Position numbers and translations under genes: made by a program. From Hydrurus foetidus (taxonomy: Eukaryota), in assembly GCA_900617105.1 (NCBI GenBank), contig UYFQ01000001.1:1550001-1614000 (forward strand): DNA of 64,000 bases, in the 5' to 3' direction. Below are positions 250-62,616 of the stretch, piece by piece (position 1 is the first letter of the stretch; each line of letters opens with the position of its first letter). The notes below the pieces were generated by a model. It did not search any database, was not told the origin of the DNA, and saw only the letters and a list, made by a program, of their open reading frames with translations.

Positions 250-298
250 GCCTGTAGCCCAATAAAAACGGGCGCGAGCAGCTTCTTTATTAATAGCA
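250..298 (-). repeat. 49-bp dispersed motif, copy 1 (intergenic)
   Basis: revcomp tgctat-taataaa-gaagc-tgct-cgcgcc-cgtttttatt-gggctacaggc. Confidence 0.9.
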
Positions 299-322
299 AT
301 TAACAGCCACGATTAACTACAC

Positions 323-1207
323 CTACAACTGCCGCAGGTCGGTCTTCAGCAGCAAGCCCACCAGCGATTGCAAGTGAACTTTCAGCGGCTCAAAACCCGG
401 CAATATTTCAAGCGTTTCCTCGTTCATGTACAGCTTGCGGTTGATCTCCAGCTGCACGCTGTGGCGATGCCCTGCCGGGTTGCTGTAGCGGCGCACCAGC
501 TCTACGCCTTTGTACGGGTGGTTGTAGGCCACGCTGTAACCCAAGCTGCGCAAGTGACCGCAGATCAGCTGCGACAGCGCCGGGTGGGCGGTGGTGCCGT
601 CGCGGTCGCCCACTACAAAGTCAGCGTGCTTTTCGCCGGGGAAATCAGTTGCCTTGCTAGACGCCACCGCCGGCATGGAGTGGCAGTTGATGTGAATGCT
701 GTAACCGTGCTGGGCGTGCGCCAAGTCAATGCTGGCGGCCACCGCCGCGTGATACGGCTGCCAGCAATGGGCGATGCGCGCCTGCACTTCAGCCACGGCC
801 AATTTGCGGCTGTAAATGGGCGAGCCGTCATCTAATGTGCGCCAAATCAGGCCTTTGCCCAGGCGCACTTTTGACATGACGGCAGCGTCAGTTTCAATTG
901 GTCCGAGCCACGCGCCATCAAGCAATGATTCATCCATTTCGGTGATGTTGCGGTTAGCGTCCAGGTAGCTGCGCGGAAACATCGCCTCTACCCAATGCAC
1001 TTTCATGCCGGGCGCAAAGTCGTAGAGTTTTTCAACATGCGTGTCTTCAGCGCGGCGCAGCACCACACCGTCGCAACTGAAGGCAAAGTCGGCCGGGTAA
1101 AGCGTACCGCTGTGCGGGGAGTCCAGCACCAGTGCGCTGGTGCCAGCCACTGCATACACTTGCTCATGCGTCGCTGTTGAATTGACCGAGTTGCCCATCC
1201 CGCTCAT
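323..1207 (-). CDS. N-formylglutamate amidohydrolase family protein
   Basis: LVLDSPHSG, EDTHV, DANR, HINCHSM, PYKG, QLEINR motifs; start trimmed to ATG 1207 (1198 also possible). Confidence 0.88.
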   Translation of the reverse strand: MSGMGNSVNSTATHEQVYAVAGTSALVLDSPHSGTLYPADFAFSCDGVVLRRAEDTHVEKLYDFAPGMKVHWVEAMFPRSYLDANRNITEMDESLLDGAWLGPIETDAAVMSKVRLGKGLIWRTLDDGSPIYSRKLAVAEVQARIAHCWQPYHAAVAASIDLAHAQHGYSIHINCHSMPAVASSKATDFPGEKHADFVVGDRDGTTAHPALSQLICGHLRSLGYSVAYNHPYKGVELVRRYSNPAGHRHSVQLEINRKLYMNEETLEILPGFEPLKVHLQSLVGLLLKTDLRQL

Positions 1208-1282
1208 TGTGCCCCGTGAAGCGGTGGCCCCTTTTCGTTCGCAGCGGATCTTGTTCACACGCATTTTTAGTATGCCAGTGCG

Positions 1283-1558
1283 GTGCATGAGGTGAGCGGC
1301 ATCAACACGCTGGCGGGGCCGCAACTTGATCAATTTCACAGCGTAATTTGTGCCTTCATGGCCGGCATGGGTGTTGCGCTGGTGCCGCATTGCCTGGCCA
1401 AAGACGACATTGCGGCGGGCAACGTGTGCACCCCGCTGGCCATGGGTGACGGTGGGGATTATTTGAGCGACAAAGGCTATTACCTTTGCTACCCAGACGC
1501 GCGCCGCCATGCGCAAAGCCTGGTGTACTTTCGTGACTGGTTGCTGGCCGCTGTGTAG
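1283..1558 (+). pseudogene. C-terminal fragment of a LysR-type (GcvA-like) regulator, no HTH
   Basis: AGMGVALVP...GYYLCYP...FRDWL matches the end of the LTTR substrate-binding domain; only 91 aa, and there is no room upstream for the N-terminus. Confidence 0.7.
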
Positions 1559-1740
1559 CCCTAACTGTGGCGCCGCCTACACGCAAACTTACCGTTTTAA
1601 GCGCTTCATTACGCGCATAGTCCTACGCCTGTGCCCAGTGCGTGCCTACCGCGCTAAACGCTCGTCAAACCTACAGTCGATTCATCTTGCCGCAACGCGC
1701 GGGAAGTTATTTATCTGTTGAATCAACTGAAGGACTAACT

Positions 1741-2403
1741 GTGAAAAAACTCGTTTCCCGCACCCCACTTCGTACCAGCGGTTTTGGCAAATTGGCCAAC
1801 CTTTCAATAATGCTTGCAACCACGGCCTTTGCAGCCGTTGCCATGGCGCAAACCAGCGGCACCACCAACAGCACGTCTAACACTTCTGCATCAAGCGGCT
1901 ACAGCATGATGGCGCCCGGCGCGACTTACATTGGCTTGAACGCCGGTCAATCGAAATTTCGCAACAGCAGCGGTTTTGGCGGATTCGCCTCAGACAGCAA
2001 AGACAATTCGTATGGCATTTACCTCGGCTCTTACTTCACGCCTTATGTTGGCGTGGAGTTGGGCTACACCGACTTCGGCAACGTTGACCGCGCTGGCGGC
2101 AACACCGAAGCCAAAGCAGGCACCGTTGCATTGGTTGGCAAATTTCCATTGAGCCCTTCGTTTAACCTGCTGGGCAAACTGGGGGCGACTTACAGCCGCG
2201 TGAATGTGTCAGCACTGCCCGCCTCAGGGGTGGCCACTGGCGGCAAGTCGGGCTGGGGCCCTTCTTACGGCGTTGGCGCTGAATACAACTTCACGCAGAA
2301 CGTGTCGGCAGTCGTGCAGTACGACGAGTACCGCATGCCCTACCCTGGCGGCAGCAAAGAGAAGGTGAACAACACCAGCGTGGGCATTCGCTTCAGGTAC
2401 TAA
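1741..2403 (+). CDS. Outer-membrane beta-barrel protein (OmpA-like transmembrane domain)
   Basis: Signal peptide, YIGLNAGQS, GVELGYTDFG, YGVGAEYNF and terminal aromatic (GIRFRY); start uncertain. Confidence 0.8.
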   Translation: MKKLVSRTPLRTSGFGKLANLSIMLATTAFAAVAMAQTSGTTNSTSNTSASSGYSMMAPGATYIGLNAGQSKFRNSSGFGGFASDSKDNSYGIYLGSYFTPYVGVELGYTDFGNVDRAGGNTEAKAGTVALVGKFPLSPSFNLLGKLGATYSRVNVSALPASGVATGGKSGWGPSYGVGAEYNFTQNVSAVVQYDEYRMPYPGGSKEKVNNTSVGIRFRY

Positions 2404-2431
2404 AACCCGGCGTGTGCTTTTGAGCCACCAT

Positions 2432-2465
2432 AAAGCCCGCAGCGCAAAAGCCCTGCGGGCTTTTT
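2432..2465 (+). terminator. Rho-independent terminator
   Basis: aaagcccgcag...ctgcgggcttttt. Confidence 0.8.
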
Positions 2466-2468
2466 GTC

Positions 2469-2517
2469 TGCTATTTATTACATAGCTGCTCGCGCCCGTT
2501 TTTATTGACTTAAAGGC
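2469..2517 (+). repeat. 49-bp dispersed motif, copy 2 (intergenic)
   Basis: tgctat-ttattac-atagc-tgct-cgcgcc-cgtttttatt-gacttaaaggc; shares a 24-nt identical block with copy 1. Confidence 0.9.
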
Positions 2518-2584
2518 TACTTTCGTACTAAACGGGAGCTTTTTGCGTTCTGCGGGCTGTAAGGCACCTAAACGCAAAGGGTGA

Positions 2585-3321: not shown

Positions 3322-3339
3322 ACGCCCTGCCCGACTTAT

Positions 3340-3386: not shown

Positions 3387-3435
3387 GTTTCTAATTGCTA
3401 TTGATATTGACACTGAGATTGAAAGTGAGTCTGCC

Positions 3436-8621: not shown

Positions 8622-9332
8622 TTATTTCATCTGCACCGAGCCGCTCACGCTCACCAGCACCGTGGTTTTGCCCGCCTCTACCGGCACGGCCGAGTCTGAT
8701 TCCATTGATTTAGCCTGCATGGCCACCATGCGCGGGCGCGGCTGAAAGCCTTGGTCGTTGGCGTTGATGCTGACTTCACGCAGCGTGTAGCCGGTAAAGC
8801 CAAAGCCTTTAGTGACTTCAAGCGCTTTGGCTTTAAACCGCTCAATGGCCAGCGTTTGCGCTTCGGCCTCCACCTTGGCGCGCTGCTCTTTGCTCAATGC
8901 AAAGCTCACGTTGCCCATGGTCAAGCTTTGAATCTTGCCTGCCGTGCCGGTAATGCGGCTGAAGTCGCGGCCTTCCAGCACCATTTCGGTACTGCCCTGC
9001 CAGCCGTTGATCTTGCCGTTTTTGTCGTAGCGCGGGTAAAGGCTGAAGTTGCCCGTGCGCAAATCAAGCTGGCCTGCCAACACCGCCGGTCGGGCAATGG
9101 CCAGCGCTGCCTCAAGCGCTTGTTTAAGCTGGGTCTGCACCGCATTGGCGTCAGCACCGCCCGCGCTGGTACTCATGGTGATGGACAACAAATCTTGCTG
9201 AACCTCGACGCTGCCGTTGGCTGCCAGCTGCGCAACGTTGCGCAAGTCCTCCCGGGGCATAAAATTTTGAGAAAAAGAGCTTGTAGCCCAAGTAATTAAG
9301 GCGCAAGCAGCTATAACTTTAGTAGCGTTCAT
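8622..9332 (-). CDS. SIMPL (DUF541) domain periplasmic protein
   Basis: Signal peptide, YPRYD..INGW, AIERFKAKA, VPVEAGKTTVLVSVSGSV. Confidence 0.88.
   Translation of the reverse strand: MNATKVIAACALITWATSSFSQNFMPREDLRNVAQLAANGSVEVQQDLLSITMSTSAGGADANAVQTQLKQALEAALAIARPAVLAGQLDLRTGNFSLYPRYDKNGKINGWQGSTEMVLEGRDFSRITGTAGKIQSLTMGNVSFALSKEQRAKVEAEAQTLAIERFKAKALEVTKGFGFTGYTLREVSINANDQGFQPRPRMVAMQAKSMESDSAVPVEAGKTTVLVSVSGSVQMK
9279..9327 (-). repeat. 49-bp dispersed motif, copy 3 (encodes the SIMPL signal peptide)
   Basis: revcomp cgctac-taaagtt-atagc-tgct-tgcgcc-ttaattactt-gggctacaagc. Confidence 0.85.
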
Positions 9333-11779: not shown

Positions 11780-11831
11780 TTGATTTTGGGCTCAAAATGC
11801 CCAAAAATGCCTGGCTTTATCCACAAAACGG

Positions 11832-11880
11832 GCCTGTGGCCCAATAAATTTAGGCGCAAGCAGCTCATTTATTAATAGCA
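11832..11880 (-). repeat. 49-bp dispersed motif, copy 4 (intergenic)
   Basis: revcomp tgctat-taataaa-tgagc-tgct-tgcgcc-taaatttatt-gggccacaggc. Confidence 0.9.
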
Positions 11881-13268: not shown

Positions 13269-16200
13269 ATGGACTTACCCAAACTCACCCTCGGCAAACG
13301 CTACACCCTGCCCCAACCTGTGGGGTCGGCAGACGCACTTTTGATTGGGCAAATAGCCCTGCGTGAAAAGGCGGCTGGCAAGCTGGTTGCCATCGTCACC
13401 TCAGACGCCACCACCGCCCAGCGCCTGATGCAGGAGCTGGCCTTTTTCGCCCCCGATTTGCGTTGCGCGTTGTTCCCTGACTGGGAAACGCTGCCTTACG
13501 ACACGTTTTCGCCGCACCAGGACCTGATCAGCGAGCGCTTGGCTACGCTGTGGCGGATTCAGCAGCGGAACAAAGATTCAGGTGCTGATGTCGTCATCGT
13601 GCCCGCCACCACCGCCCTTTACCGCCTGGCCCCGCCCAGCTTTTTGGCGGGCTACACATTTGAATTCAAGGTCAAACAAAAGCTGGACGAAGCGAAGTTA
13701 AAGGCGCAGCTAACACTGGCCGGGTATAGCCACGTGACGCAAGTTGTCAGCCCCGGTGAATACGCGGTGCGCGGCGGGCTGATTGACTTGTTCCCGATGG
13801 GTTCACTCGTGCCGTACCGCGTTGATTTGTTTGACGATGAAATCGACAGTATTCGCACGTTTGACCCCGACACCCAGCGCAGCTTGTACCCCGTGCCAGA
13901 AGTACGCCTGCTGCCAGGCCGCGAGTTTCCGATGGACGACGATGCACGGGCGAGATTCAGAAGCCGCTGGCGTGAACTGCTCGATGGCGACCCAACCAAA
14001 AGCCGCATCTACAAGGACATCGGCAATGGCGTTGCCACAGCAGGTATTGAATATTATTTGCCGCTGTTTTTTGAAGAGACAGCGACGGTATTTGACTATC
14101 TTGGGGCCAACGCCACCGTGGTTTTGCATGGTGACCTGGAGCCTGCTTTTCAGCGCTTTTGGCAAGACACCAAAGACCGTTACCGCCTGGTCAAAGACGC
14201 GCCAGACCGGCCTGCGCTGCCGCCTGAATCGCTGTTTTTGTCGGCTGAACAGTTTTATGCCCGGGCTAATAACTACGCGCAGCTGGCTTTTAAAACCGGA
14301 CGCGGGGAGAGCCCTCACCCTAGCCCTCTCCCGCTGGCGGGAGAGGGGACGAATGCGGACTTGCGCCCTCTCCCGAGCACGGGAGAGGGCGGGGGTGAGG
14401 GCTCTGCGTATGCGGAGTTTCAAAACCTAGAGCCTATGGCCGTCGTGCGCGGCGCAGAAGACCCGCTAACCCTCCTAAAAGCCCACATCAAAAACACGCC
14501 CCAGCGCGTGTTGATACTGGCCGAGAGCGATGGCCGCCGCGAGAGCCTGTTGGACTTCTTGCGCGCCAGCGGCGTGAGCCCACCCGCGTTCGACTCGCTC
14601 GAAGACTTCCAGACCAGCCCAGAAAAACTGGGCATTGCCACGTCTTCATTGAACGTGGGTTTCAGCTGGCTTAAAGGCGACATTGACTTCATCACCGAGA
14701 CCGAGCTGTTTGCCGCAGGCATGGCCGTGCGCCGACGCAATAAAAAGCAAGAGAAAGTCAGCGATGTAGAAGCGCTGATCAAAGACCTGTCAGAACTGAA
14801 CGTGGGCGACCCGGTGGTGCACAGCGCCCACGGCATTGGCCGCTACAAGGGGCTGATCAACATGGACCTGGGGCAAGGGCCATCCGAGTTTTTGCATTTG
14901 CAGTATGCCGACGACGCGACGCTGTATGTGCCGGTCAGCCAATTGCAGCAGATCAGCCGCTACACCGGCGTCAGTGCCGACGAGGCGCCATTGCACCGCC
15001 TGGGCGGCGCGGCGTGGGACAAAGCCAAGCGCAAAGCCGCCGAGCAAGTGCGCGACTCGGCTGCCGAGCTGCTCAACATTTATGCAAGACGTGCCGCACG
15101 CGAAGGCCACGCCTTCCGTTATTCGCCTAACGATTACGAAACCTTCGCCAACGACTTTGGCTTTGACGAAACCGCCGACCAAAGCGCCGCTATTCATGCC
15201 GTGATTCAGGACATGATCAGCCCACGCCCGATGGACCGGCTGGTTTGTGGAGATGTGGGTTTTGGCAAGACTGAAGTCGCTTTACGCGCGGCTTTTATTG
15301 CGATCACCGGCGGTAAGCAGGTCGCCCTGCTTGCCCCCACCACGCTTCTGGCCGAGCAGCACTTTCAAACGCTGAGCGACCGCTTTGCCAAGTGGCCCGT
15401 CAAGGTGGCGGAGATGAGCCGGTTCAGGTCCGCCAAAGAAATCACCGCCGCTATCAAGGGCATTGCTGACGGCACGATTGACATCGTGGTTGGCACGCAC
15501 AAACTGCTGAGCAAAGACATCAACTTCCAGCGCCTTGGTTTGCTGATCATCGACGAAGAACACCGCTTTGGCGTGCGCCACAAAGAGGCCATGAAAGCCA
15601 TGCGCGCCGAAGTCGATGTGCTGACGCTGACCGCTACGCCGATTCCGCGCACGCTGGGCATGGCACTTGAGGGTTTGCGTGATTTAAGTGTCATAGCCAC
15701 CGCCCCGCAGCGCCGGCTTGCTATCAAAACCTTTGTGCGCAGCGAGAGCAATGGCGTGATTCGCGAGGCTGTGCTGCGTGAACTCAAGCGCGGTGGGCAG
15801 GTTTACTTTTTGCATAACGAGGTGGAAACCATTCAAAACCGCCGCGAAAAGCTTGAAGCCTTGCTGCCAGAAGCCCGCATAGCGGTCGCCCACGGCCAGA
15901 TGCCCGAGCGCGAACTGGAGCGCGTGATGAAAGATTTCATCGCGCAGCGCTACAACCTGCTGCTGTGCTCGACGATTATTGAAACTGGCATTGACGTGCC
16001 CACGGCCAACACCATCGTGATGGCGCGCGCCGACAAGTTTGGCCTGGCGCAACTGCACCAGCTGCGTGGCCGTGTGGGCCGTAGCCACCACCAGGCTTAT
16101 GCCTATTTGATGGTGCCCGACATTGAAGGCCTGACCAAGCACGCCAGCCAGCGGCTGGAAGCGATTCAGCAAATGGAGGAACTCGGTTCAGGCTTTTACC

Positions 16201-16892: not shown

Positions 16893-17213
16893 ATGAACCA
16901 CGTCTCCGACATCATCCCCGAATACTTGGCTGATAGCCCTGTTCAAAACACGGGCCGTAAGGTCAGCCTGTTCCGCAACGGTTCCAATCAGGCGGTGCGC
17001 ATCCCCAAAGAATTTGAGTTGCCCGGCAAGCAGGCCACGATGCGGCGCGTGGGCAATCGATTGATCATTGATTTGGTCGAACCCAAGCACCCCAGAGGTA
17101 GCGCAGCCGCGCTTGTAGCGGCACTGGAAAGCATGAAAGACTGGGAGCCTGTGCTTGAAGAGTTTCCAGACGTTGATGAGGGCTTGCTACCGCTGGACGA
17201 CATCGTTCTATGA
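16893..17213 (+). CDS. vapB: AbrB-type antitoxin
   Basis: SLFRNGSNQAVRIPKEFE motif; overlaps the PIN toxin by 4 nt. Confidence 0.9.
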   Translation: MNHVSDIIPEYLADSPVQNTGRKVSLFRNGSNQAVRIPKEFELPGKQATMRRVGNRLIIDLVEPKHPRGSAAALVAALESMKDWEPVLEEFPDVDEGLLPLDDIVL

Positions 17214-17725
17214 CCAAGCTCTATTTTTTCGACACCAATATCATCTCGCACATGATGCGCGAAACCGCGGGACTGGCCGCCCAACGATATATAGCCGCCG
17301 CAAAGGCCAACACTTCTACAAAGATCGCAACCAGCGTGATCGTGCAGTGCGAGTTGGAGTTTGGACTTGTACGCCGACCCAACCAGCGCCTCAGAGCGGC
17401 ATACGAAAACATAGTGCCGTTACTCGAGGTTATGCCATTAACCGAGCTTGTCACTGCCCACTACGCCCAACTGCGCACCCAACTTGAAACCGCTGGCACA
17501 CCTATCGGCGCAAATGACATGCTGATTGCAGCCCACGCCATGTCCATAGACGCAACACTTGTCAGTGCCGACGCCGAATTTTTGCGCGTGCCTGGGTTAC
17601 GTGTTGAAAACTGGCTGGCAGAAGAGGAGTCCGAGCTGACAACCTGGAATGACGGAAAAGTTAAAAAAAGCGACAAAATTAGCCTACAGCCCAATAAAAA
17701 TGGGCGCAAACAGCTCCTAAAATAA
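17210..17725 (+). CDS. vapC: PIN-domain toxin with C-terminal extension
   Basis: DTNI, ELEFG, GTPIGANDMLIAAHA, EFLRVPGLRVENW. Confidence 0.92.
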   Translation: MTKLYFFDTNIISHMMRETAGLAAQRYIAAAKANTSTKIATSVIVQCELEFGLVRRPNQRLRAAYENIVPLLEVMPLTELVTAHYAQLRTQLETAGTPIGANDMLIAAHAMSIDATLVSADAEFLRVPGLRVENWLAEEESELTTWNDGKVKKSDKISLQPNKNGRKQLLK

Positions 17726-17730
17726 TAGTA
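17682..17730 (-). repeat. 49-bp dispersed motif, copy 5 (overlaps vapC 3' end and stop)
   Basis: revcomp tactat-tatttta-ggagc-tgtt-tgcgcc-catttttatt-gggctgtaggc. Confidence 0.9.
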
Positions 17731-17750
17731 ATCAAAACCTGTCATAACAC

Positions 17751-17951
17751 ATGACCCAAGCCAAAGACCTGCTGCAAAGCCTCGACGGTTTAAGCGCGCC
17801 GCGACTGCGCCGTCTGCTGATGGAGCACCTTACCAAGCAAAAGCTGGGGCCGTACTGGGAAGCCAGTGCGATTAATCGAGACGCGGCGCTCAACACCAAT
17901 GTTGTTTTGCCACTCAAGATTGCAAGTGACAATTGCCGTACACGCCTGTAA
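17751..17951 (+). pseudogene. Truncated 5' stub of a second type III mod allele
   Basis: First ~54 codons align without gaps to the N-terminus of the methyltransferase at 19943, then diverge and stop. Confidence 0.85.
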
Positions 17952-17979
17952 CACCGACCAGCCCAAACGAAAGAACAAC

Positions 17980-19380
17980 ATGAAATTTCAATTCACAAGC
18001 CTGGGCGCGATTGACGAGGCGAGCATCGAGATAGCACCGTTGACCATCATTTGCGGGCGCAACAATACCGGAAAAACGTATGCCACGTACGCGATGTACG
18101 CATTTCTATCTATGTGGCGGCAGCTTATCGACTGGGAAGTTGACCGTGCCGATTTAGAAAAGCTGTCGAAAGATGGAGCCGTCTCAGTTGACATGCAAGC
18201 AAAATTTGTGGACAAATGGCCTGAGATAAAAAAGCTTACTTGCACCCGTTGGCAGGAATCTTTGCCGCGATCGCTTGGTGCGCCGGCTTCACGATTTGAA
18301 GATACTCAAATCTCTTTTGATTTTGATATTGATGGTGCTTGGAAATCAGCCAGCTTCAAAGAGGAATTGCGCAGCGGGCAGGGCAAGATTCTCTTTTCAG
18401 CTGAGAAAGCCGAAAACAGCAGCGTTGTCGAGTTTGCGGCATTGACTGACAACGATCGGGGTGAGTTTCCTCGCTTCGCCCTAGAAGAATTTGTCAGTCA
18501 AACCCTGCTTGAAGTCGTGTTGAGCCCCTATCTGCCGACCGTATTCATGGTCAGCACGGAGCGAACTGGCGCTGTCACCTTTAAGGAAGAGTTAAACCTT
18601 ACAAAGAACAAGCTTGTTAACTTCCTAGCAACGATGGACTCCAGCAATGAGATGCAGCATCCCGGCAAACTTTTTGAAGCGATCTACAGCGGCGGATACC
18701 CGTTGCCGGTCGAAAGCAATGTGCAATTTGTCAACCGTTTTGGGTCTTTGGAAAGTCGTTCTGGTTCACTTCTAAAAGAGCATCCAACGTTAGCTTCCGA
18801 TTTTGAAGGTATTGCAGGCGGACAGTACTTGACCAATAAAGACGGCGTCACGCACTTTGTACCTAAGGGTACAAAAATTCAATTGAAGTTACATGAGGCC
18901 TCAAGCGCGGCACGGAGCTTGGTTGTTATCTGGTATTGGCTCAAGGCAGAAGCTGCAAAGGGCCATATGCTGCTGATAGATGAGCCAGAGTTAAACCTAC
19001 ATCCAGAAAATCAACGAGCGTTCGCACGGTTTTTGGCAAAGCTTGTCAACTTGGATGTCAAGGTACTCATCACAACTCACAGCGACACAATAGTGCGCGA
19101 GTTCAATACTTTGATCATGTTGGCACGCGTTAGCCCGCATGCGGAAGCAGTGCGCAGCAAATTCGGATATGGGATAGATGAATGTTTGGGCACCGAAAAA
19201 ATTGTGCTTTACGTAGCCAACGGCCGAAAGCTAACGAAAACTGGCAGACAGAGCGCAGGTACGTCGACATTAGTGCGCGTCGATCCCAGCCCTACTTTAG
19301 GTTTGGCTGCCGAAATTTTTGACTCGACCATTATTGATATGGGCAAAGTCCAAGATGCATTGCGCTACGGAGCGATATAA
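17980..19380 (+). CDS. ABC-superfamily (AAA_15/AAA_21-like) soluble ATPase
   Basis: Walker A GRNNTGKT, degenerate signature ASSAARS, Walker B/D-loop LLIDEPELNLHP, H-loop ITTHS; no TM partner. Confidence 0.88.
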   Translation: MKFQFTSLGAIDEASIEIAPLTIICGRNNTGKTYATYAMYAFLSMWRQLIDWEVDRADLEKLSKDGAVSVDMQAKFVDKWPEIKKLTCTRWQESLPRSLGAPASRFEDTQISFDFDIDGAWKSASFKEELRSGQGKILFSAEKAENSSVVEFAALTDNDRGEFPRFALEEFVSQTLLEVVLSPYLPTVFMVSTERTGAVTFKEELNLTKNKLVNFLATMDSSNEMQHPGKLFEAIYSGGYPLPVESNVQFVNRFGSLESRSGSLLKEHPTLASDFEGIAGGQYLTNKDGVTHFVPKGTKIQLKLHEASSAARSLVVIWYWLKAEAAKGHMLLIDEPELNLHPENQRAFARFLAKLVNLDVKVLITTHSDTIVREFNTLIMLARVSPHAEAVRSKFGYGIDECLGTEKIVLYVANGRKLTKTGRQSAGTSTLVRVDPSPTLGLAAEIFDSTIIDMGKVQDALRYGAI

Positions 19381-19382
19381 CA

Positions 19383-19946
19383 GTGTCGCTAGCAACCTTC
19401 AATGCCATTCGAGCGCTATTAAACAGCAGCAAAATTCAAACCGTCAACCAGTCAGTTCTTAGAATAGAGGAAAAAAGTAAGTCGGCCAGTATGAAACTGA
19501 TCGAAATTGACGGTGTCGGAAAAAACGCGTTTTCAATCAAATACGACGAGTGCGGATTTCCCGGACAAAACCTTTTTGCTCCACATCCCGAACTACATCG
19601 CGGGTGCGATTCAGTGGCATTCTGTGAGTTAGAGGGACAGCCTTACATTTTGTGTTTTGAACTTAAATCGAGTGAGCCTTCGAGACACGATGTCACACCG
19701 CAATTTCGGGGGGCACAATGCTTTCTAGAGTACCTAGAAACTCTGCTGAAAACTTATTCCAGGGTCGACTCTATTTCAAAGTGGCAGCGTCGTTACTACG
19801 TTTTTCACAATCAAGCCACAACGCCACTGAGTAAACGCACATCGCACGATAGTTACGACAACACAACGCCAGAGCAGGCTCTATTTATTGCGGCCAACAC
19901 GGGCGCTAAAACGTATCTTCGGAAACTCTTGGGGAAACCGTTTTGA
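19383..19946 (+). CDS. Putative PD-(D/E)xK nuclease-fold protein
   Basis: EE...RGCD-x16-ELKS-x10-Q pattern; tightly coupled to both neighbours. Confidence 0.6.
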   Translation: MSLATFNAIRALLNSSKIQTVNQSVLRIEEKSKSASMKLIEIDGVGKNAFSIKYDECGFPGQNLFAPHPELHRGCDSVAFCELEGQPYILCFELKSSEPSRHDVTPQFRGAQCFLEYLETLLKTYSRVDSISKWQRRYYVFHNQATTPLSKRTSHDSYDNTTPEQALFIAANTGAKTYLRKLLGKPF

Positions 19947-22027
19947 CCCAACCCAAAGACTTACTCCAAAGCCTTGACGGTTTAAGCGCGCCGCAACTGC
20001 GCCGTCTGCTGACCGAACACCTGACCAAGCAAAAGCTGGGGTTGTATTGGGAATCCAATGCAATTGAGCGTGATGCAGCGCTAAACGCGAACATTGTGTT
20101 GCCGCATGTGGTCGAAGAGAACTCGCACAACCTGAATGCTGTCGCCGGGACAGGCACACCCAACCTGATTATTGAGGGCGACAACTACGACTCGTTAAGG
20201 CTGCTTAAAAGCACACACGCTGGCAAAGTACGCGTGATTTACATTGACCCGCCCTACAACACCGGCAACAAAGACTGGGTGTACAACGACCGTTATGTGG
20301 GCGCCAATGACCGCTGGCGGCACAGCCAGTGGCTGGAGTTTTTGTACCGCCGCCTCACACTGGCCAAAGATTTGCTCACCCAAGACGGCGTGATCATGGT
20401 CAGCATCAACGACGAAAACCGGGCGCGGCTGGAGTTGTTGATGGATGAGGTGTTTCCGGGGCGGCGTGTGGGTAGCCTTGTATGGCGCACCAAAGACACG
20501 GGTAATGACCTTAGCCAGCGCTTTAGCCATGTGCATGAGCATGTGCTGGTGTATGGCAACGCAGGCTTCAAGTTCAATGGCCGGGCGACTGACCGCAGCA
20601 AGTTCAGAAATTCCGACAACGACCCGCGTGGCGACTGGTCGCCACAGCCTTTGACCGCGAACAAAACACTCATTGAACGCAAAAACACCTATTACCCGAT
20701 TCAAAACCCCGAGACAGGTTATTGGTACCCCTGCGACCCAGACAGTACCTGGAGATTTGCTTCTGAAAAAGAAATCCGCCAGCGGCTAGGCGATGACGAA
20801 GTGGGTGTACAAGCTGCTTTGGATGGCTTACGCAGCGACACCATGGAAGAGCTGATTGCGCAAAAACTGATTTACTTCCCACCTTGCAAAGCTGCTGACG
20901 TCATGCTGTATGAGACACGAGCTGCGTTAAGCGCTGCCATTGCCGCTGGCACAGGGCCTATGCTGCCGAAAAAGAAAACCCCTTTGTTACGCGAAGACTT
21001 GCCCGACATTGACTTTTGGGTCGGCAAACCGATTGCCACTGGACGACCGTCACGCAAAGAGCTGTGGACAGCCAAGCCAGAAGCGGATCGGCTAGCACCC
21101 TTGAGCAGCTGGATTGCCGGGCAAAACGAAGCTGTTGCAAGCGTTGAAGACGAAAACGGTGACGAGCCCGCCGTGCTGCGCAGCGACAGAGGTGGCGTGG
21201 CCACAGAAGAGATTAAAAACTTGCTGGGCTCAAAAGCCTTCCCCTACCCCAAGCCGTTATCTCTCATTCAAGGCCTACTTTCCCAAGCCACCTGCCCCAA
21301 CGACACCATCCTCGATTTCTTCGCAGGCAGCGGCACCACAGGCCATGCGGTACTGGCATTGAACGCACTCGACGGCGGCAACCGCAAGTTCATTTTGTGC
21401 AGCAGCACCGAGGCCACTGACAAAGAGCCCGCTAAAAACCTGTGCCGTGACGTGTGTGCAGAACGCATGAAGCGGGTGATTGAATCAGATGCCGCGTTTG
21501 CAAACAACAGCTTTGCCTACCTGCAGCTCGACAAAATAGCACCGGGCGATGCACCATTTGAGTCTGACTGCGCGCATGCTTTTCAGTTGCTCACGCTGCG
21601 ACTGGGCAAAGTGGCTCGGCCTGTGCCTACAGCCGACAAGGGCATCAAAATTTTGCTGCAAAGCGCGGCTGAAGGCTCATTGACCGTGCTGGTACACCGC
21701 CTGACAACCGCAGCACTTGAGGCTCTAGCCGCCCTGCCCTTGTCCAGCAACGCCAACTACGGCCACTTGCGCGTTTACTCAACCCGGCCAGACACGGTGC
21801 GCAACCATTTGCAGCGCGTCTGGGAGGGGAGTGAGAAAACCTTCGAGTCCCTGTCGCTGCAAAAAGCCATGCTGCATGGGCAAATAGCGCCGCGGGCGCG
21901 CGTCAAAAGCAGGCGTACAACTGCACAAGGCGCTGAAGTTACTACTGATTTGATAGCTGCTCGCGCCCATGAATCGGCGGCTAGCGGTCTAAATGCCTCT
22001 GAAAAGCCTGAAAAATCCGAAAAATGA
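19943..22027 (+). CDS. Type III R-M adenine methyltransferase (Mod)
   Basis: LIIEGDN, IYIDPPYNTG, FPYPKP, DFFAGSGTT (beta-class order); TTG start. Confidence 0.93.
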   Translation: MTQPKDLLQSLDGLSAPQLRRLLTEHLTKQKLGLYWESNAIERDAALNANIVLPHVVEENSHNLNAVAGTGTPNLIIEGDNYDSLRLLKSTHAGKVRVIYIDPPYNTGNKDWVYNDRYVGANDRWRHSQWLEFLYRRLTLAKDLLTQDGVIMVSINDENRARLELLMDEVFPGRRVGSLVWRTKDTGNDLSQRFSHVHEHVLVYGNAGFKFNGRATDRSKFRNSDNDPRGDWSPQPLTANKTLIERKNTYYPIQNPETGYWYPCDPDSTWRFASEKEIRQRLGDDEVGVQAALDGLRSDTMEELIAQKLIYFPPCKAADVMLYETRAALSAAIAAGTGPMLPKKKTPLLREDLPDIDFWVGKPIATGRPSRKELWTAKPEADRLAPLSSWIAGQNEAVASVEDENGDEPAVLRSDRGGVATEEIKNLLGSKAFPYPKPLSLIQGLLSQATCPNDTILDFFAGSGTTGHAVLALNALDGGNRKFILCSSTEATDKEPAKNLCRDVCAERMKRVIESDAAFANNSFAYLQLDKIAPGDAPFESDCAHAFQLLTLRLGKVARPVPTADKGIKILLQSAAEGSLTVLVHRLTTAALEALAALPLSSNANYGHLRVYSTRPDTVRNHLQRVWEGSEKTFESLSLQKAMLHGQIAPRARVKSRRTTAQGAEVTTDLIAARAHESAASGLNASEKPEKSEK
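21940..21988 (+). repeat. 49-bp dispersed motif, copy 6 (in frame in the mod tail)
   Basis: tactac-tgatttg-atagc-tgct-cgcgcc-catgaatcgg-cggctagcggt. Confidence 0.8.
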
Positions 22028-24789: not shown

Positions 24790-24810
24790 CTTTAAAAACC
24801 AATTAAATCA

Positions 24811-24859
24811 ACCTATAGCCCAATAGATACAGGCGCAAGCAGCTCCTAAAATAATAGTA
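24811..24859 (-). repeat. 49-bp dispersed motif, copy 7 (intergenic, res-serB)
   Basis: revcomp tactat-tatttta-ggagc-tgct-tgcgcc-tgtatctatt-gggctataggt; shares a 21-nt identical block with copy 5. Confidence 0.9.
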
Positions 24860-29642: not shown

Positions 29643-30583
29643 AAAATTAAAAACGCTATGAATACCATCGCTGCTTGCGCCCATAAAAATGCGGCTGCAA
29701 CCACTTTTGATGCCATTTTTAAAGCCAAATCGACATCTGGCGGCGCTGGCGGCCTGCCTGCAGCGTTCAGAACATAAACACCGGGCTTTTGCAGGCGCAC
29801 GCCCAGTGCAAGCGCCATTGCCGCCATCGGCCAGCCGCTGTTGGGCGACGGCGTTTTGCGGGCTTCAACGCTGAGGGTTTTGAAATCAACGCTTTGTGAA
29901 AACAGCTTGAGCAGCAGCGCTGTGATGCGCGCGGGCAACCAGCTCAGCGCATCATCAGCGCGCGCAGCCCACTTGCCCGACCACTCCCAGTTCACGCCGT
30001 TGCGCAGGCCGCGGTAGCCCCACATGGCATCAGCCGTATTGGCAAAGCGGTACAGCGCAGCGCCCGGCAAGCCGAACAGCACAAAATAGAGAATGGGCGC
30101 GACCACAGAGTCGTTCAAGTTTTCAGCCAGCGATTCAATCGCACTCTCGCGCACTTCAGCCTCGCTTAAATTTGCCGTGTCACGACTGACCAAAAAGGCC
30201 AAGCGCTGGCGACCTGCATCCAGCGATTGACTCAAGGCGGCCTCAATTGCACGCACCTCAGACTGCAACATCGCCCAAGCCAGCATCGGTTTAAGCGCCA
30301 GGCCCAAAAGCAAAGCAGCGATGTACCAAGGCAATGCCAAAGCCGCCCATTGCACACCGCAAGACACTATCAAAACAAGAGCTGCTCCCGCCCACCAATA
30401 GGCGGCTGCGAGCCAAAATGACTTCAAATCACGAAGATCAGGAGAGGCTTCAGGCCAAAGTCGCCTGGCAGCCCAGTTCAGGTAATTGCCGATCCACACC
30501 ACCGGGTGCAAATGCATCCTTGGCTCGCCCCACCATCGATCAATCGCTAACGCAATCGCCAACGCGCCGCACCCCGCCAGCAC
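29639..30583 (-). CDS. cbiB: Adenosylcobinamide-phosphate synthase
   Basis: HPVVWIG, VSRDT, ESLAEN, NTADAMWGY, SPNSG. Confidence 0.93.
   Translation of the reverse strand: MLAGCGALAIALAIDRWWGEPRMHLHPVVWIGNYLNWAARRLWPEASPDLRDLKSFWLAAAYWWAGAALVLIVSCGVQWAALALPWYIAALLLGLALKPMLAWAMLQSEVRAIEAALSQSLDAGRQRLAFLVSRDTANLSEAEVRESAIESLAENLNDSVVAPILYFVLFGLPGAALYRFANTADAMWGYRGLRNGVNWEWSGKWAARADDALSWLPARITALLLKLFSQSVDFKTLSVEARKTPSPNSGWPMAAMALALGVRLQKPGVYVLNAAGRPPAPPDVDLALKMASKVVAAAFLWAQAAMVFIAFLIL
29654..29702 (+). repeat. 49-bp dispersed motif, copy 8 (in frame in the cbiB C-terminal TM)
   Basis: cgctat-gaatacc-atcgc-tgct-tgcgcc-cataaaaatg-cggctgcaacc. Confidence 0.75.
30365..30413 (+). repeat. 49-bp dispersed motif, copy 9 (in frame in a cbiB TM)
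   Basis: cactat-caaaaca-agagc-tgct-cccgcc-caccaatagg-cggctgcgagc (more degenerate). Confidence 0.6.
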
Positions 30584-31241: not shown

Positions 31242-32033
31242 TTAAATTCTTGGCAAAGCCACCCATTGCCCCGCTAATAGGTGCACGGCGATTCGCTCGT
31301 CGAACACTTGTTCAATCGCTCGGTGGCTGACACCGGCGCTGCACAGGCCTTGGTGCTTGATGCAACCGTTGGCCATCACCACCACCTCATCGGCCTGCAG
31401 CGCGAATGAAATTTCATGCAGCACGCTGATGACGGTTTTACCGCTGGCCACCAGCGCTTTGACCAGCAGCAACCAATCGGTTTGGTGGGGCGGGTCCAGG
31501 TTGGCCAGCGGCTCGTCCATCAGCAGAACTTCAGCCTCAACCGCCAGCGCGCGCGCCAGCAATACACGTTGCCTTTCACCACCCGACAACTGGCCGAGCG
31601 CCCTGCCCCGCCAGTCCCACGCCTGGGTTGAGCGCAGCGCTTTTTCAACCGCCGCATGATCGGCCGCGCTGGCGGGCGCCAGCCACGGCTGATGGGGCAG
31701 CCGGCCCAGCATGGTGACGTCATAGGCAGTCAAGTCGTCGGCGGTTGCTTCGCTTTGGCCCAGCCACGACATCTGCCGCGCGCGCTGCTTGGCAGGCAAA
31801 TTTTGAGCGGGATGGCCGAGCAATTCGGTAGCGCCCGAAAAGGGAGTCAACCCCGCCAGCACTTTGAGTAGAGTCGATTTGCCGGCACCGTTGGGGCCGA
31901 CGATGCTGGTCCAGCGGGCGCGCGGGAAAGTGACGGAAATATCGCTTAAAACCTCGACATTTCCGAGCCTAGCCCCTATTTTATGGGCGCGAGCAGCTAT
32001 TGAATACATAGCAATACTCAAAGGTTTTGTCAT
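31242..32033 (-). CDS. ABC transporter ATPase (BtuD/FecE-like)
   Basis: GPNGAGKS, LSGGE, MDEP; start trimmed to the ATG overlapping the permease stop. Confidence 0.9.
   Translation of the reverse strand: MTKPLSIAMYSIAARAHKIGARLGNVEVLSDISVTFPRARWTSIVGPNGAGKSTLLKVLAGLTPFSGATELLGHPAQNLPAKQRARQMSWLGQSEATADDLTAYDVTMLGRLPHQPWLAPASAADHAAVEKALRSTQAWDWRGRALGQLSGGERQRVLLARALAVEAEVLLMDEPLANLDPPHQTDWLLLVKALVASGKTVISVLHEISFALQADEVVVMANGCIKHQGLCSAGVSHRAIEQVFDERIAVHLLAGQWVALPRI
31965..32013 (-). repeat. 49-bp dispersed motif, copy 10 (in frame in the ABC ATPase N-terminus)
   Basis: revcomp tgctat-gtattca-atagc-tgct-cgcgcc-cataaaatag-gggctaggctc. Confidence 0.88.
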
Positions 32034-33924: not shown

Positions 33925-34535
33925 AGTTGCCCCTTCAAAAATAACGGCAAACCAGCGGCCATGAACGTCACCCGCTCACAGGCAGCGGCCACGTCTTGGT
34001 TCAAGCGCCCAAGCGCATCAACGAACGCACGCGTTTCGCGCCCCATCGGGATCACGCCCAGTCCGATCTCATTGCCCACCAAAACAACGGGGCCTGGTGC
34101 CCCCTCAATTGCTATTAAAAGCGTAGCTGCTTGCGCCCGTATTTGTTGGGCTACGTCTTGTTTTAATGCATTTTCTAGGTCATTTTTAGCGTTTTCAGGG
34201 CTATTTTCAGCATTTTCGTGGGGCATCAACAGGTTAGTGAGCCACAACGTCAAACAGTCCACTACCACCAGGGTGTGCGGCTGGCTGTGAGTTTGAATCG
34301 CTTCGCCAAGCTTGATTGGCGCTTCAATTGTTTGCATACCCGGCACGCGCTCAGCGCGGTCCAGTTGGTGACGCGCAATGCGTTCTCGCATCTCGTCGTC
34401 CCACGCCGTTGCAGTGGCGATCAACACCGCTTGGTGGCTAGGGACTAGCGCCAGCCAGTCACGCGCCAGCAGTTCGGCCCGGCGCGACTTGCCGCTGCGC
34501 TGCCCGCCCAAAATAAGTTCGCTACGCGCTTGCAT
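33921..34535 (-). CDS. cobU: Adenosylcobinamide kinase/phosphate guanylyltransferase
   Basis: GGQRSGKS, RIARH, VDCLTLW, NEIGLG, GRLNQ. Confidence 0.93.
   Translation of the reverse strand: MQARSELILGGQRSGKSRRAELLARDWLALVPSHQAVLIATATAWDDEMRERIARHQLDRAERVPGMQTIEAPIKLGEAIQTHSQPHTLVVVDCLTLWLTNLLMPHENAENSPENAKNDLENALKQDVAQQIRAQAATLLIAIEGAPGPVVLVGNEIGLGVIPMGRETRAFVDALGRLNQDVAAACERVTFMAAGLPLFLKGQL
34110..34158 (+). repeat. 49-bp dispersed motif, copy 11 (in frame in cobU)
   Basis: tgctat-taaaagc-gtagc-tgct-tgcgcc-cgtatttgtt-gggctacgtct. Confidence 0.88.
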
Positions 34536-38710: not shown

Positions 38711-39040
38711 AAACTCTCACCGGCATCCCCGCCAGTGCATGAGCGACAAGACGACGCGCTTTTTTCAAAGCGCAGCATCACCTTGTTGGCCGGTATCCGG
38801 GCTGACGGAACTGCTTTCATCGCCTTCCCAAGTGATTTTTAAAGTCACTCAGTGGCTGAGGATGAAGGCTGAAAGCACGACCTTGGACAGGCGTGCTTTC
38901 GTCCGTTTTACCGTTGCGGGGGCAGCGCAGGTTAAAAGGCATCGCGTACTTGGCACCGGTTAAACCGGAATAAAGTCGCGCTTGCCTCCTCCTGCTTCCC
39001 GTTGAACTGCAGCGTGTGAACCACACCGCGAGCACCAACA
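38711..39040. repeat. 330-bp direct repeat, copy A
   Basis: Reads identical to 41118-41447 (offset 2407). Confidence 0.95.
38784..39040 (-). promoter_or_regulatory. Cobalamin riboswitch 1
   Basis: Minus strand: tgttgg..ccaaca closing stem, GGGAA, CTGCCCCCGCAACGGT, GCCACTG..GGGAAGG, AGCCCGGATACCGGCC B12-box. Confidence 0.93.
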
Positions 39041-41117: not shown

Positions 41118-41447
41118 AAACTCTCACCGGCATCCCCGCCAGTGCATGAGCGACAAGACGACGCGCTTTTTTCAAAGCGCAGCATCACCTTGTTGGCCGG
41201 TATCCGGGCTGACGGAACTGCTTTCATCGCCTTCCCAAGTGATTTTTAAAGTCACTCAGTGGCTGAGGATGAAGGCTGAAAGCACGACCTTGGACAGGCG
41301 TGCTTTCGTCCGTTTTACCGTTGCGGGGGCAGCGCAGGTTAAAAGGCATCGCGTACTTGGCACCGGTTAAACCGGAATAAAGTCGCGCTTGCCTCCTCCT
41401 GCTTCCCGTTGAACTGCAGCGTGTGAACCACACCGCGAGCACCAACA
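41118..41447. repeat. 330-bp direct repeat, copy B
   Basis: Reads identical to 38711-39040. Confidence 0.95.
41191..41447 (-). promoter_or_regulatory. Cobalamin riboswitch 2
   Basis: Same motifs as riboswitch 1. Confidence 0.93.
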
Positions 41448-42060: not shown

Positions 42061-42145
42061 CAACGGCTTTAACCGCTGGTCGACAAAGCGAGCGCTCTGC
42101 TCGCGGTAAATCGCAAATTTTTTCCAGCAGGCCTACAATCGTTTT

Positions 42146-42320
42146 TGTCTGCGGTACGCGCTGGGCTTTATATTTCCTTGAACCAATGCTTTTAATAGCA
42201 CGGGCTTGGTAAATTGCCCGGCTGGCGCGCCCGTCTCGCGTTAGACGAGCCCAAAGCCAGGCTGCCCTCGCCCACCTGAACCCCGGTTCAGGATGACGGT
42301 CCAGCGGTACTTGCAGACAC
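42146..42320 (+). ncRNA. ssrS: 6S RNA
   Basis: Follows zapA; closing stem tgtctgc/gcagaca, ccttgaacc and cctgaacc-ggttcagg elements; TACAAT -10 at 42134. Confidence 0.88.
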
Positions 42321-42417
42321 CTTTTTCAGCACCTGCGCCAAATTAATTGGTACTTTGCGTTGACTCGACAGCGTGCTCTGCTTTGGGTCTAATTGCTTGT
42401 TTTGTAAAAGCACTATC

Positions 42418-51598: not shown

Positions 51599-52042
51599 AT
51601 GGCAACTGCAAAAAAAGCACCGGCTAAAAAAGCGCCTGCAAAAAAGGCTGCTCCGGCAAAGAAAGTAGCTGCGAAGAAAGCAGCTCCAGCGAAAAAGGTA
51701 GCCGCTAAAAAGGCAGCTCCTGCCAAGAAGGTAGCCGCTAAAAAAGCAGCACCGGCGAAAAAAGCAGCCGTTAAAGCGGCGCCTGCTAAAAAACGCACCC
51801 CGAACGCAGCGTTCATGAAGGCATTGACACTGAGCCCGGCTTTGGCCGCAGTGTTGGGCGACAAGCCACTGCCGCGCACTGAGATTGTCAGCAAGCTGTG
51901 GGTCTACATCAAGGCCAACAAGCTGCAAGACAGCATCAACAAGCGCATGATCAACGCCGACGCCAAGCTCAAAGCCGTCTTCGGCAAAGCCCAAGTGTCG
52001 ATGTTCGAGATGGCCGGCCTGATCGGTAAGCACGTCAAGTAA
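51599..52042 (+). CDS. SWIB/MDM2-domain protein with histone-H1-like Ala/Lys/Pro N-terminus
   Basis: AAPAKKVAAKK repeats then PRTEIVSKLWVYIK..LQD. Confidence 0.9.
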   Translation: MATAKKAPAKKAPAKKAAPAKKVAAKKAAPAKKVAAKKAAPAKKVAAKKAAPAKKAAVKAAPAKKRTPNAAFMKALTLSPALAAVLGDKPLPRTEIVSKLWVYIKANKLQDSINKRMINADAKLKAVFGKAQVSMFEMAGLIGKHVK

Positions 52043-52091: not shown

Positions 52092-52113
52092 ATGGTTTTC
52101 AGGCATGCTTTAA

Positions 52114-52162
52114 GGCTGACGCCCAATGAATACGGGCGCGAGAAGCTATGAATTTAATAGTA
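52114..52162 (-). repeat. 49-bp dispersed motif, copy 12 (intergenic)
   Basis: revcomp tactat-taaattc-atagc-ttct-cgcgcc-cgtattcatt-gggcgtcagcc. Confidence 0.88.
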
Positions 52163-60299: not shown

Positions 60300-60383
60300 G
60301 GTTTATCGTAATTCAACTGCCGTCAAAATACATGGGCAGGCGGCACAATAACTCCATTGATACCGTTCCCGCCAAAAAGTAAT

Positions 60384-61781: not shown

Positions 61782-61782
61782 T

Positions 61783-61831
61783 TGCTACGCTATTCATAGC
61801 TTCTTGCGCCTGTATTAATTGGGCTATCGGC
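61783..61831 (+). repeat. 49-bp dispersed motif, copy 13 (intergenic)
   Basis: tgctac-gctattc-atagc-ttct-tgcgcc-tgtattaatt-gggctatcggc. Confidence 0.88.
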
Positions 61832-61876
61832 CATTTTTACCCTTAACATCAGTCTTCTTTGCCTTGTAGCTGCCCC

Positions 61877-62545
61877 ATGTGCTCACACTACCAAGCTGTT
61901 ACTGCGCTAGAGCGCTTTGAGCGCCACTTTCACACCCCGGCCCCTGCCTGCCCCAACCTCACAGACATGTGGCCCACCTACCCGGCAGCTGTGGTGCTGG
62001 CCCAGCTTGGTGATCGGCAGTCAGTTGCCGCCCGTTGGGGTTTGATTGCGGCATCAACCAAGGCGTTGAACCCCAAGCTGTCGACATTTAACGCGCGCAG
62101 CGAAAGCATGGCCACGGCCCCAACCTTCAGCGGTGCTTGGGCCAAAGGCCAGCGCTGCATTGTGCCGGCCGAGGCAATCTACGAGCCGGACTGGCGCAGC
62201 GGCCGCCACGTGCCAACCCGCCTGCAGCGCGCCGACGGCCAGCCAATGGGCATTGCCGGGCTGTGGGACTGCTGGGCAGCACCCACCGGCGAAGTGACGA
62301 TGAGCTTCACCATGCTCACCATCAACGCTGATGCACACCCACTGATGAAGCACCTGCACAAGCCACAAGACGAAAAACGCATGGTCGTTGTATTAAGCGA
62401 AGCGCACTATGACGAGTGGTTAAACCCGTCGACCACCGCCACTGCAGCCAATTACCAGAGGTTGCTGCAGCCCTACGCCGCTGACCAACTGACGGCCATT
62501 AGCGAACCCAGCCAAGCCACACTGGACAACCCCGAGTTATTTTAG
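61877..62545 (+). CDS. SOS response-associated peptidase (SRAP/YedK family)
   Basis: Met-Cys start, RWGL, FNARSE, RCIVPA, AGLW, H..KRM. Confidence 0.9.
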   Translation: MCSHYQAVTALERFERHFHTPAPACPNLTDMWPTYPAAVVLAQLGDRQSVAARWGLIAASTKALNPKLSTFNARSESMATAPTFSGAWAKGQRCIVPAEAIYEPDWRSGRHVPTRLQRADGQPMGIAGLWDCWAAPTGEVTMSFTMLTINADAHPLMKHLHKPQDEKRMVVVLSEAHYDEWLNPSTTATAANYQRLLQPYAADQLTAISEPSQATLDNPELF

Positions 62546-62567
62546 CGCCGAGAAGTTGACTCCGAAT

Positions 62568-62616
62568 TGCTATTTATTTAATAGCTGCTAGCGCCTGTAT
62601 TGATTGGGCTACAGGT
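62568..62616 (+). repeat. 49-bp dispersed motif, copy 14 (intergenic)
   Basis: tgctat-ttattta-atagc-tgct-agcgcc-tgtattgatt-gggctacaggt. Confidence 0.9.

Follow-up and report, generated by a model that had tools for sequence, protein, structure and literature searches.

Fourteen dispersed copies of one long, ungapped DNA motif lie in a 64-kb stretch of contig UYFQ01000001.1 (assembly GCA_900617105.1, deposited as Hydrurus foetidus; positions 1,550,001 to 1,614,000), hereafter the window. The motif extends over about 65 bp and recurs by the hundred in related genomes, and our results support the interpretation that it is a double-stranded DNA (dsDNA) site read by a protein. The best reading of its role in our analysis is an uptake-type tag spread by molecular drive, a proposal that we make tentatively and stop short of calling probable. 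An earlier note on the window had described 14 ungapped copies, seven on each strand. All 14 starts matched its consensus without gaps (2 to 8 mismatches), and a matrix built from them exceeded 5 bits nowhere else in the window. Leave-one-out scores ranged from 28 to 64 bits, and the best score in 30 shuffles was 3.3 bits. A 27-letter core, with up to three mismatches allowed, gave 12 matches in the window against 0.01 expected. The length of 49 bp given in that note was too short, as the motif runs to about position 58 to 65; its extents are given here as 66-bp spans.

Genome-scale work covered the nearest genome (G001), 600 kb of a motif-rich genome (G416), and 177 kb of a motif-poor genome (G535). 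The consensus, drawn from 124 family-wide loci and from G416, reads YGCTAY, 7 bases with a central WWW, RTAGC, 5 weakly conserved bases, a GC box (positions 24 to 28), 9 weak bases, TGSGCT, RSARSC, WWWW (52 to 55), RY (57 and 58), and an A-rich patch (63 to 65); the first 27 positions of the 124-locus consensus were fixed by the search pattern. Two adjacent dyads had been proposed, of which the first stands, and the second is weak, with a register that differs between lineages. The claim of fixed-length spacers held: spacing was exact in 77 of the 78 cases that have both the first dyad and the downstream module, and variable spacing was rejected. (An initial spacing scan, confounded by single modules that passed the threshold, was not used.) The A/T tracts near positions 10, 53, and 64 are spaced approximately in phase with the DNA helix, with AA or TT interchangeable, and the strongest dependencies among the 92 G416 sites are between neighboring bases, chiefly AA versus TT in these tracts. 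We infer that the boxes are read as bases and the tracts as minor-groove DNA shape, i.e., by double-stranded readout.

The 92 sites in 600 kb of G416 extrapolate to about 690 per chromosome, and the density of the motif is one per 5 to 6.5 kb. Each site holds about 50 bits of information, whereas about 14 bits would suffice to locate that many sites. Scores are bimodal: with a held-out matrix, 27 sites exceeded 20 bits in 200 kb and just 3 more exceeded 0. Gaps between sites are slightly more even than random (coefficient of variation, 0.80; p = 0.025). On a 4.5-Mb chromosome, a stricter pattern gave 77 and 85 matches on the two strands. The 100 of these 162 matches that were listed are evenly spread over 0.04 to 2.94 Mb, with no regional or strand pattern over that part, in which origin and terminus were not located.

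The motif is restricted to one family in the genomes sampled. In G001, a 26-letter core (up to two mismatches) had 398 matches in 2.7 Mb, compared with 1 for a reversed control. Of 301 genomes of this family, 86 had 20 or more occurrences of the exact dyad GCTAT-N7-ATAGC (highest count, 394; highest control count, 7), a level reached by none of 293 genomes from other families of the order (highest count, 12), a sample that includes an unpublished genome with a dyad count of 3 (G024). Counts differ sharply within genera (298 versus 21, 284 versus 1, and 45 versus 0). Carrier names, seen for 80 of the 124 loci, include Polaromonas, Rhodoferax, Acidovorax, Simplicispira, Curvibacter, Giesbergeria, Comamonas, and related metagenome-assembled genomes, and from these records the family would be the Comamonadaceae. 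The genome of Acidovorax temperans DSM 7270 has 199 exact dyads.

The earlier note had argued for a dsDNA recognition site rather than an RNA hairpin or a miniature inverted-repeat transposable element (MITE), and the structural tests agree with it. Among the 92 G416 sites, no pair in either dyad exceeded its independent expectation by more than 0.05. In a 25-site set from the window lineage, pair 25-41 reached 0.84 against 0.74 expected, with too few sites to weigh. Folding energies did not exceed those of column-shuffled controls on either strand (-14.97 versus -14.89 +/- 0.29 and -13.61 versus -13.39 +/- 0.26). The Rfam search suggested earlier gave no match at any copy, its only matches in the window being two cobalamin riboswitches and a 6S RNA, and for two copies nothing appeared at E values up to 1. 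An RNA hairpin role was rejected on these grounds. Also consistent with a dsDNA site are the exact spacing, the lack of orientation relative to transcription, and coding copies that entail no change in length.

Signs of transposition were equally scarce. As claimed before, no obvious target duplication was present (the best was 3 bp in 7 of 92 G416 sites), and no transposase was visible by Pfam among the 58 of 146 listed open reading frames (ORFs) of the window that were scanned, which showed ordinary chromosomal genes plus one restriction/toxin-antitoxin island. Variable blocks were unlinked among the 64 strongest sites (27.1 versus 26.3 +/- 0.9), and no young subfamilies of copies were detected. 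In between-species comparisons we saw none of the traits of a MITE or nonautonomous insertion sequence (terminal inverted repeats, flush filled and empty sites, or young identical copies). Nor did we see the covarying stem or GTAG/CGTC tag of repetitive extragenic palindromic (REP) elements. A Y1 transposase-like gene, similar to REP-associated tyrosine transposases (RAYTs), is present as a single copy in three rich and two poor genomes; in these five genomes, it neither is flanked by motif arrays nor tracks the motif. This gene stood beside gltB in four translated cases from at least two genera and looks vertically inherited. Of the observations that the earlier note had named as telling against its interpretation, such as target duplications with a cognate transposase or freely varying spacers, none turned up in what was tested.

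Many sites are written into genes. By a simple custom gene caller, 32 of the 92 G416 sites lie inside genes (16 sense and 16 antisense, in two preferred frames), 13 overlap gene ends, and 47 are intergenic, so that 45 of 92 are in or overlap genes. The intergenic sites comprise 25 between codirectional genes (11 in the same orientation and 14 in the opposite), 16 in convergent gaps, which are somewhat favored, and 6 in divergent promoter gaps, which are underused (6 of 47 sites versus 26% of gap length). Many of the intergenic copies are no more than 50 bp from a gene end. Of 29 coding sites, 15 are located within Pfam matches, e.g., in aroA, folC, gpsA, and pdxA (the other 3 of 32 were left out because their genes crossed a locus edge).

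Comparison with the motif-poor G535 shows what such sites look like after loss. In a tree of up to 15 shared genes (taxa with fewer than 900 residues excluded), G535 groups as sister to G416, and the two have 84% identity in aligned DNA. It has 1 site in 177 kb, and G416 has 27 in the 200 kb compared with it. Anchors on both sides were available for 17 of the 27 and lacking for 10. Of these 17, six, all coding, show zero length difference from G535; two lie beside extra G535 DNA, and the other nine are taken up below. The site in a helix of a branched-chain amino acid permease scores 22 to 45 bits in six genus members and aligns gap-free with a noncarrier of the genus and with another family. 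A site in an ABC ATPase covers the conserved stretch LTVLQNV (farther along the protein, two outgroups are shorter by two residues). Between G416 and G535, the permease site differs at 15 of 20 third codon positions versus 193 of 595 elsewhere in the gene, and the ATPase site differs at 11 of 20 versus 69 of 221. Overall GC content at third codon positions is equal (0.84 and 0.85), and the excess therefore indicates that carriers maintain the sites in spite of codon bias and that this constraint relaxes once the motif is lost. Some sites are old and shared, namely, one in a ComEC loop, present at 5 of 10 loci, and one in Tex, present in 9 of 20 rich genomes and 0 of 10 poor ones. A different, GC-rich hairpin repeat at window positions 14296 to 14410 serves as an internal control. 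It lies in frame in mfd, is multicopy in G001, and adds about 30 residues relative to the G416 and G535 orthologs, i.e., it is a true insertion that adds length, unlike the motif sites with zero length difference. This repeat may be a betaproteobacterial repeat element (BRE) or a REP-type element.

Each lineage has its own version, or dialect, of the motif. Leave-one-out assignment to lineage was correct for all 25 window-lineage sites and for 91 of the 92 G416 sites, coding and island copies included. The orthologous site at 11832 takes on the dialect of whichever host it is in (+20 and -62). Orthologous sites are retained between genera, and dialects differ within one genus. A coevolving reader that tunes each site independently would account for this pattern. 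Lineages with few dyads hold decayed copies, and in motif-losing lineages sites decay or are deleted. The dyads of G146 and G220, considered as a possible different element, are decayed copies of this one, and the G416 site after rmuC was rejected as a clean recent insertion on finding a decayed counterpart in G609. In one clade (loci L455, L454, and L456 of G610, G616, and G622), the site at the end of a hydroxyacid dehydrogenase gene is shifted by about 45 bp relative to other members of the genus. By eye, the shift resembles a short duplication that separates protein coding from the DNA site.

Counts on mobile DNA are mixed. Five plasmids of two carrier species contain 1 exact dyad in 1,116,523 bp, whereas 101 dyads are listed for the genome of R. 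ferrireducens (PMC5217627), and a BLAST search of plasmids with one copy as query yielded no more than 8 partial matches. Two window copies, however, lie in an accessory island, both in the host dialect, and among 120 viral loci, 41 have a site of at least 30 bits. In 27 viral loci examined (58 of 132 called ORFs scanned), sites lie beside varied phage genes, including recT/recE, portal, terminase, and ninG for full sites. An integrase is near in only 2 of the 27, and a phage attachment site was rejected on this basis. Self-tag immunity is unlikely because large plasmids without the tag persist in carrier species. At some of the lineage-specific sites, the neighboring DNA has been swapped as well.

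Under the uptake reading, a putative protein would bind the tag of about 65 bp on incoming dsDNA and favor the uptake and homologous recombination of tagged DNA from kin. Alleles with better sites would replace those with worse sites during transformation, and this drive would push each site to the full preference of the reader wherever coding allows; once the bias is lost, sites would rot. We rank this reading first because biased uptake and recombination would explain by one cause the excess information, the writing into genes, the retuning, and the apparently painless loss.

Several observations weigh against it. Uptake signal sequences (USS) are about 30 bp long, and they and DNA uptake sequences (DUS) occur about once per kilobase, so that the motif is about twice the USS length at about one-fifth of the density. 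Sites are all or none, which is awkward for stepwise gain: weak matches in G416 are no commoner than in the G535 control, and lone dyads number 6 in 600 kb of G416 versus 1 in 177 kb of G535. At nine of the 17 anchored sites, the G416 DNA exceeds that of G535 by 12 to 205 bp, with edges that do not coincide with those of the motif, and the Tex loop has 16 to 23 residues with the site versus 8 to 10 in poor genomes, so that some sites may arrive with added DNA. Nearest-neighbor identity among copies is 0.71 (maximum, 0.85) versus 0.68 after column shuffling, a small excess that may stem from unequal site quality and tract runs. No reader was found, and none of the searched families separates rich from poor genomes. 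ComEC (68 of 70 genomes), ComP-like PilE (62 of 63), and helix-hairpin-helix/ComEA proteins (61 of 61) are common to motif-rich and motif-poor genomes. Type IV pilins were present in all five genomes in which they were sought, the competence machinery thus being present but not discriminating. Minor-pilin clusters of rich genomes are only about 30 to 50% alike, with no rich-only minor pilin in the 20 stretches read, and no rich-only gene was seen around the pilin and comEC loci of five genomes. Verminephrobacter eiseniae, the one relative with selective-uptake competition data (PMC4212676), has no pair belonging to the motif in the table of Tong et al. (PMC5217627). Finally, each of the positive traits could likewise result from selection for an intracellular binder.

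Such a binder is the basis of a rival that we consider unlikely yet take seriously, in which a lineage-specific chromosome protein (a nucleoid organizer or a topoisomerase or condensin loader) bends about 65 bp of DNA or wraps it, and the sites are maintained by purifying selection. The large composite footprint with its phased, interchangeable tracts, the all-or-none scores, the mildly even spacing, and the ancient comEC and tex sites suit this idea, and the failure to find a pilin reader leaves room for it. The first dyad also has the form T-N11-A, which is that of LysR-type operators. The fit to IHF, Fis, FNR, and OxyR sites was poor. Against the chromosome protein stand the loss of nearly all sites in the sister G535 and the decayed copies elsewhere. 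In addition, the information is far above need, placement is uniform, unlike that of matS, SlmA, Noc, and parS sites, and dialects within one genus would be costly if hundreds of sites had to follow a changing binder. Drive might instead act after or beside uptake, through a motif-reading protein that would protect transferred chromosomal DNA, package it, or recombine it (as a hot spot of recombination or a signal for transducing particles or vesicles). This version, which strikes us as improbable, makes the same drive predictions and needs no pilin reader, and it could draw on the full sites among phage genes and on the swapped DNA next to some lineage-specific sites. However, the sites lack the strand polarity of Chi, those in phages are not at one packaging locus, and GIY-YIG genes (their flanks not scanned) are common to rich and poor genomes. 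Terminase_6N, the one terminase family searched, is sparse in both (6 of 41 rich genomes, one of the 6 below the cutoff, and 4 of 20 poor ones).

The notion that a small mobile repeat of the REP, dRS3/NTS, or MITE type seeded the sites long ago, to be retained and refined later, could explain the longer DNA at intergenic sites and in the Tex loop, the favored convergent gaps, and the patchy distribution within genera. This notion is already weakened, and we give it a slim chance: coding sites are gap-free in conserved helices, the added lengths are uneven and do not line up with the edges of the motif, and neither target duplication, haplotype linkage, nor hairpin covariation was seen. Moreover, the Y1 transposase-like gene occurs once per genome in rich and poor genomes without flanking arrays, and the true insertion in mfd behaves differently from the motif sites. 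An RNA element or an ordinary transcription factor operator (a terminator, a stability hairpin, or a LysR regulon) would fit the T-N11-A dyad and the copies close to gene ends. It is very improbable and largely refuted by the absence of pairing excess, folding energies equal to those of the controls, random orientation, avoided promoter gaps, and the lack of an Rfam match. Closeness to gene ends is also reported for related sequence pairs by Tong et al. (PMC5217627).

The 14 window copies are listed below. Half of them lie in or overlap coding sequences, namely, the SIMPL signal peptide, the PIN and methyltransferase (Mod) tails, cobD (twice), the btuD start, and cobU.

Copies of the motif in the window, with their settings and their counterparts in related genomes
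Position	Strand	Setting	Counterparts
233..298	-	Intergenic, just 3' of N-formylglutamate amidohydrolase gene	Identical site in G001
2469..2534	+	After hairpin of ompA-like gene, upstream of ahpC	Degenerate (19 bits) in G001; 54-bit site after same gene in G416
9262..9327	-	Coding, sense; encodes predicted signal peptide of SIMPL/DUF541 protein (in-frame ATG at 9332)	Retained in G001; degenerate in G416 and G535
11815..11880	-	Between convergent sensor kinase and ispF genes	Same site and strand in G416, in own dialect; G535 102 bp shorter, site absent
17665..17730	-	Overlaps 3' end of PIN-domain (VapC-like) gene, antisense; accessory island	
21940..22005	+	In C-terminal tail of type III restriction-modification methyltransferase gene, sense	
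24794..24859	-	Between type III Res gene and HAD phosphatase (serB-like) gene	
29654..29719	+	Last codons of cobD/cbiB and start of cobC-like gene, antisense	Present in 4 of 4 anchored genus members
30365..30430	+	Inside cobD/cbiB, within Pfam match, antisense	Ortholog lengths vary greatly here; site therefore uninformative on origin
31948..32013	-	Encodes first residues of btuD-like ABC ATPase (in-frame ATG at 32009), sense	In register with orthologs lacking the motif; at least 19 bits in 8 of 18 anchored loci
34110..34175	+	Inside cobU, within Pfam match, antisense	36 to 55 bits in 13 genus loci; lacking in 3 of 15 anchored loci of a separate comparison
52097..52162	-	Between convergent SWIB-domain and P-II genes, beside terminator-like hairpin	
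61783..61848	+	Directly after stop of MATE gene, upstream of SRAP gene	Identical in G001
62568..62633	+	Between convergent SRAP and pyridoxamine-oxidase-like genes	Retained on two contigs of G001

At the three sites between 51000 and 64000, no indels were present among the matches listed from four metagenome contig sets; a joint of 61826 to 62575 in metagenome contigs was taken as an artifact, being out of register with the repeats. Identity between the window and G001 is patchy, at 96 to 100% in some blocks and 78 to 89% in others (ahpCF, the ompA-like gene, and the cob genes), and two G001 contigs match window positions 62054 to 63780, which suggests allele exchange or a mixed bin. Opposite window positions 63283 to 63527, locus L067 of G001 carries about 1 kb of extra DNA with a 229-residue membrane protein ORF and a motif copy absent from the window. 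The accessory island (16893 to 24789, between mfd and the serB-like gene) encodes an antitoxin and PIN toxin, an AAA ATPase, an unknown ORF, and the type III restriction-modification genes, and it had no match in G001, G416, or G535. Elsewhere, two tandem TonB-dependent receptor genes have identical 330-bp upstream blocks, each with a cobalamin riboswitch (38711 to 39040 and 41118 to 41447), their identity reflecting recent duplication or conversion. A 6S RNA lies downstream of zapB-zapA (42143 to 42323), and a stand-alone SWIB-domain gene (51599 to 52042) has a lysine/alanine-rich N terminus of strain-variable length.

A broader proposition is conceivable, and we hold it with rather more doubt than belief: that the motif may be a new genome-wide DNA code of 65 bp and about 50 bits, all or none, laid over housekeeping genes, retuned with its reader and erased when the reader is lost, and that the reader would be a putative multisubunit DNA-wrapping machine rather than a known pilin, one that biases which alleles are inherited. 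To our knowledge, genome-wide uptake sequences have been described for two families, the Pasteurellaceae and the Neisseriaceae. If the uptake reading is true, the motif would define a third, in abundant freshwater, soil, and wastewater bacteria, with a tag twice as long that is gained and lost between sister species. It would then offer a natural experiment on molecular drive versus selection, kin-biased exchange, species borders, and codon choice. If the reader is intracellular, the motif would reveal a chromosome-binding system with an unusually large site. A direct test is possible because a culturable, naturally transformable carrier exists in A. temperans (PMC4212676), and sister genomes with and without the motif may point to the reader gene. 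A validated tag could ease the transformation of biodegraders that are hard to engineer.

Among known systems, the matS/MatP, SlmA, Noc, and parS sites are palindromic dsDNA read by proteins and can lie in genes; they are 12 to 16 bp long, number in the tens, and are regional. The motif differs from them in its length of about 65 bp, its hundreds of copies, and its uniform placement. Pieces of it have been published. Tong, Schliekelman, and Mrazek (2017) listed the pairs GCTTAT(N)5AAGCG (Acidovorax ebreus), ATAGCT(N)22CAAAAG (Polaromonas naphthalenivorans), and GCTAT_ATAGC with d=7, which share the dyad, the distances, and the family and lie 11 to 25% in genes and often between convergent genes (PMC5217627). 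As far as the available text of that paper goes, these are separate uncharacterized pairs that are not joined into one element, and tests of structure, coding overlay, orthology, dialect, or loss do not appear. The earlier note named no formal description of the motif, and neither the whole element nor its function was described in the literature searched, a search outside which most subscription papers fell.

REP elements and bacterial interspersed mosaic elements with RAYTs, and the BRE family, resemble the motif as dispersed short repeats near gene ends, and some BRE lie in genes (PMC3733652, PMC3110155). BRE are about 90 bp long with 69% GC, are often tandem, have 1 to 29 copies, and occur also in the Alcaligenaceae (PMC3110155), and REP elements are hairpins with a GTAG or CGTC tag, whereas the motif has neither tag nor arrays and adds no length in several genes. 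A term search found no carrier genus in the main text of PMC3733652, whose supplements could list them. The dRS3/NTS elements of Neisseria, with the SsnA nuclease, have short inverted arms, a free spacer of fixed length, hundreds of copies, and a tie to transformation (PMC11893778). They form single-strand hairpins, cluster at certain genes, and flank ssnA (PMC11893778); the motif lacks a hairpin signal, clustering, and an associated GIY-YIG gene.

The closest likeness is to the USS of the Pasteurellaceae and the DUS of the Neisseriaceae, which occur as hundreds of dispersed ungapped copies on both strands at permissive positions (PMC3458573, PMC2817400, PMC2397512, PMC3630211). About one-third lie in genes (34.5% for DUS), with frame bias, and they form family-restricted dialects and are scarce in recently acquired genes (PMC2817400, PMC2397512, PMC3630211). 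USS likewise combine a core with A/T tracts, and both USS and DUS are scarce on mobile DNA. ComP is the surface receptor of this class, and PpdA/ComN are predicted to serve as one. Their cores are 9 to 12 bp, compared with 58 to 65 bp and a palindromic first box here, and the motif also differs in having almost no partial sites and in its loss from some sister species. Shared with them are dispersed, ungapped copies without polarity relative to replication or transcription, a coding overlay with frame bias (the Tex loop excepted), and dialects. Although membership in their class is not established, the evolutionary signature of the motif is that of uptake sequences.

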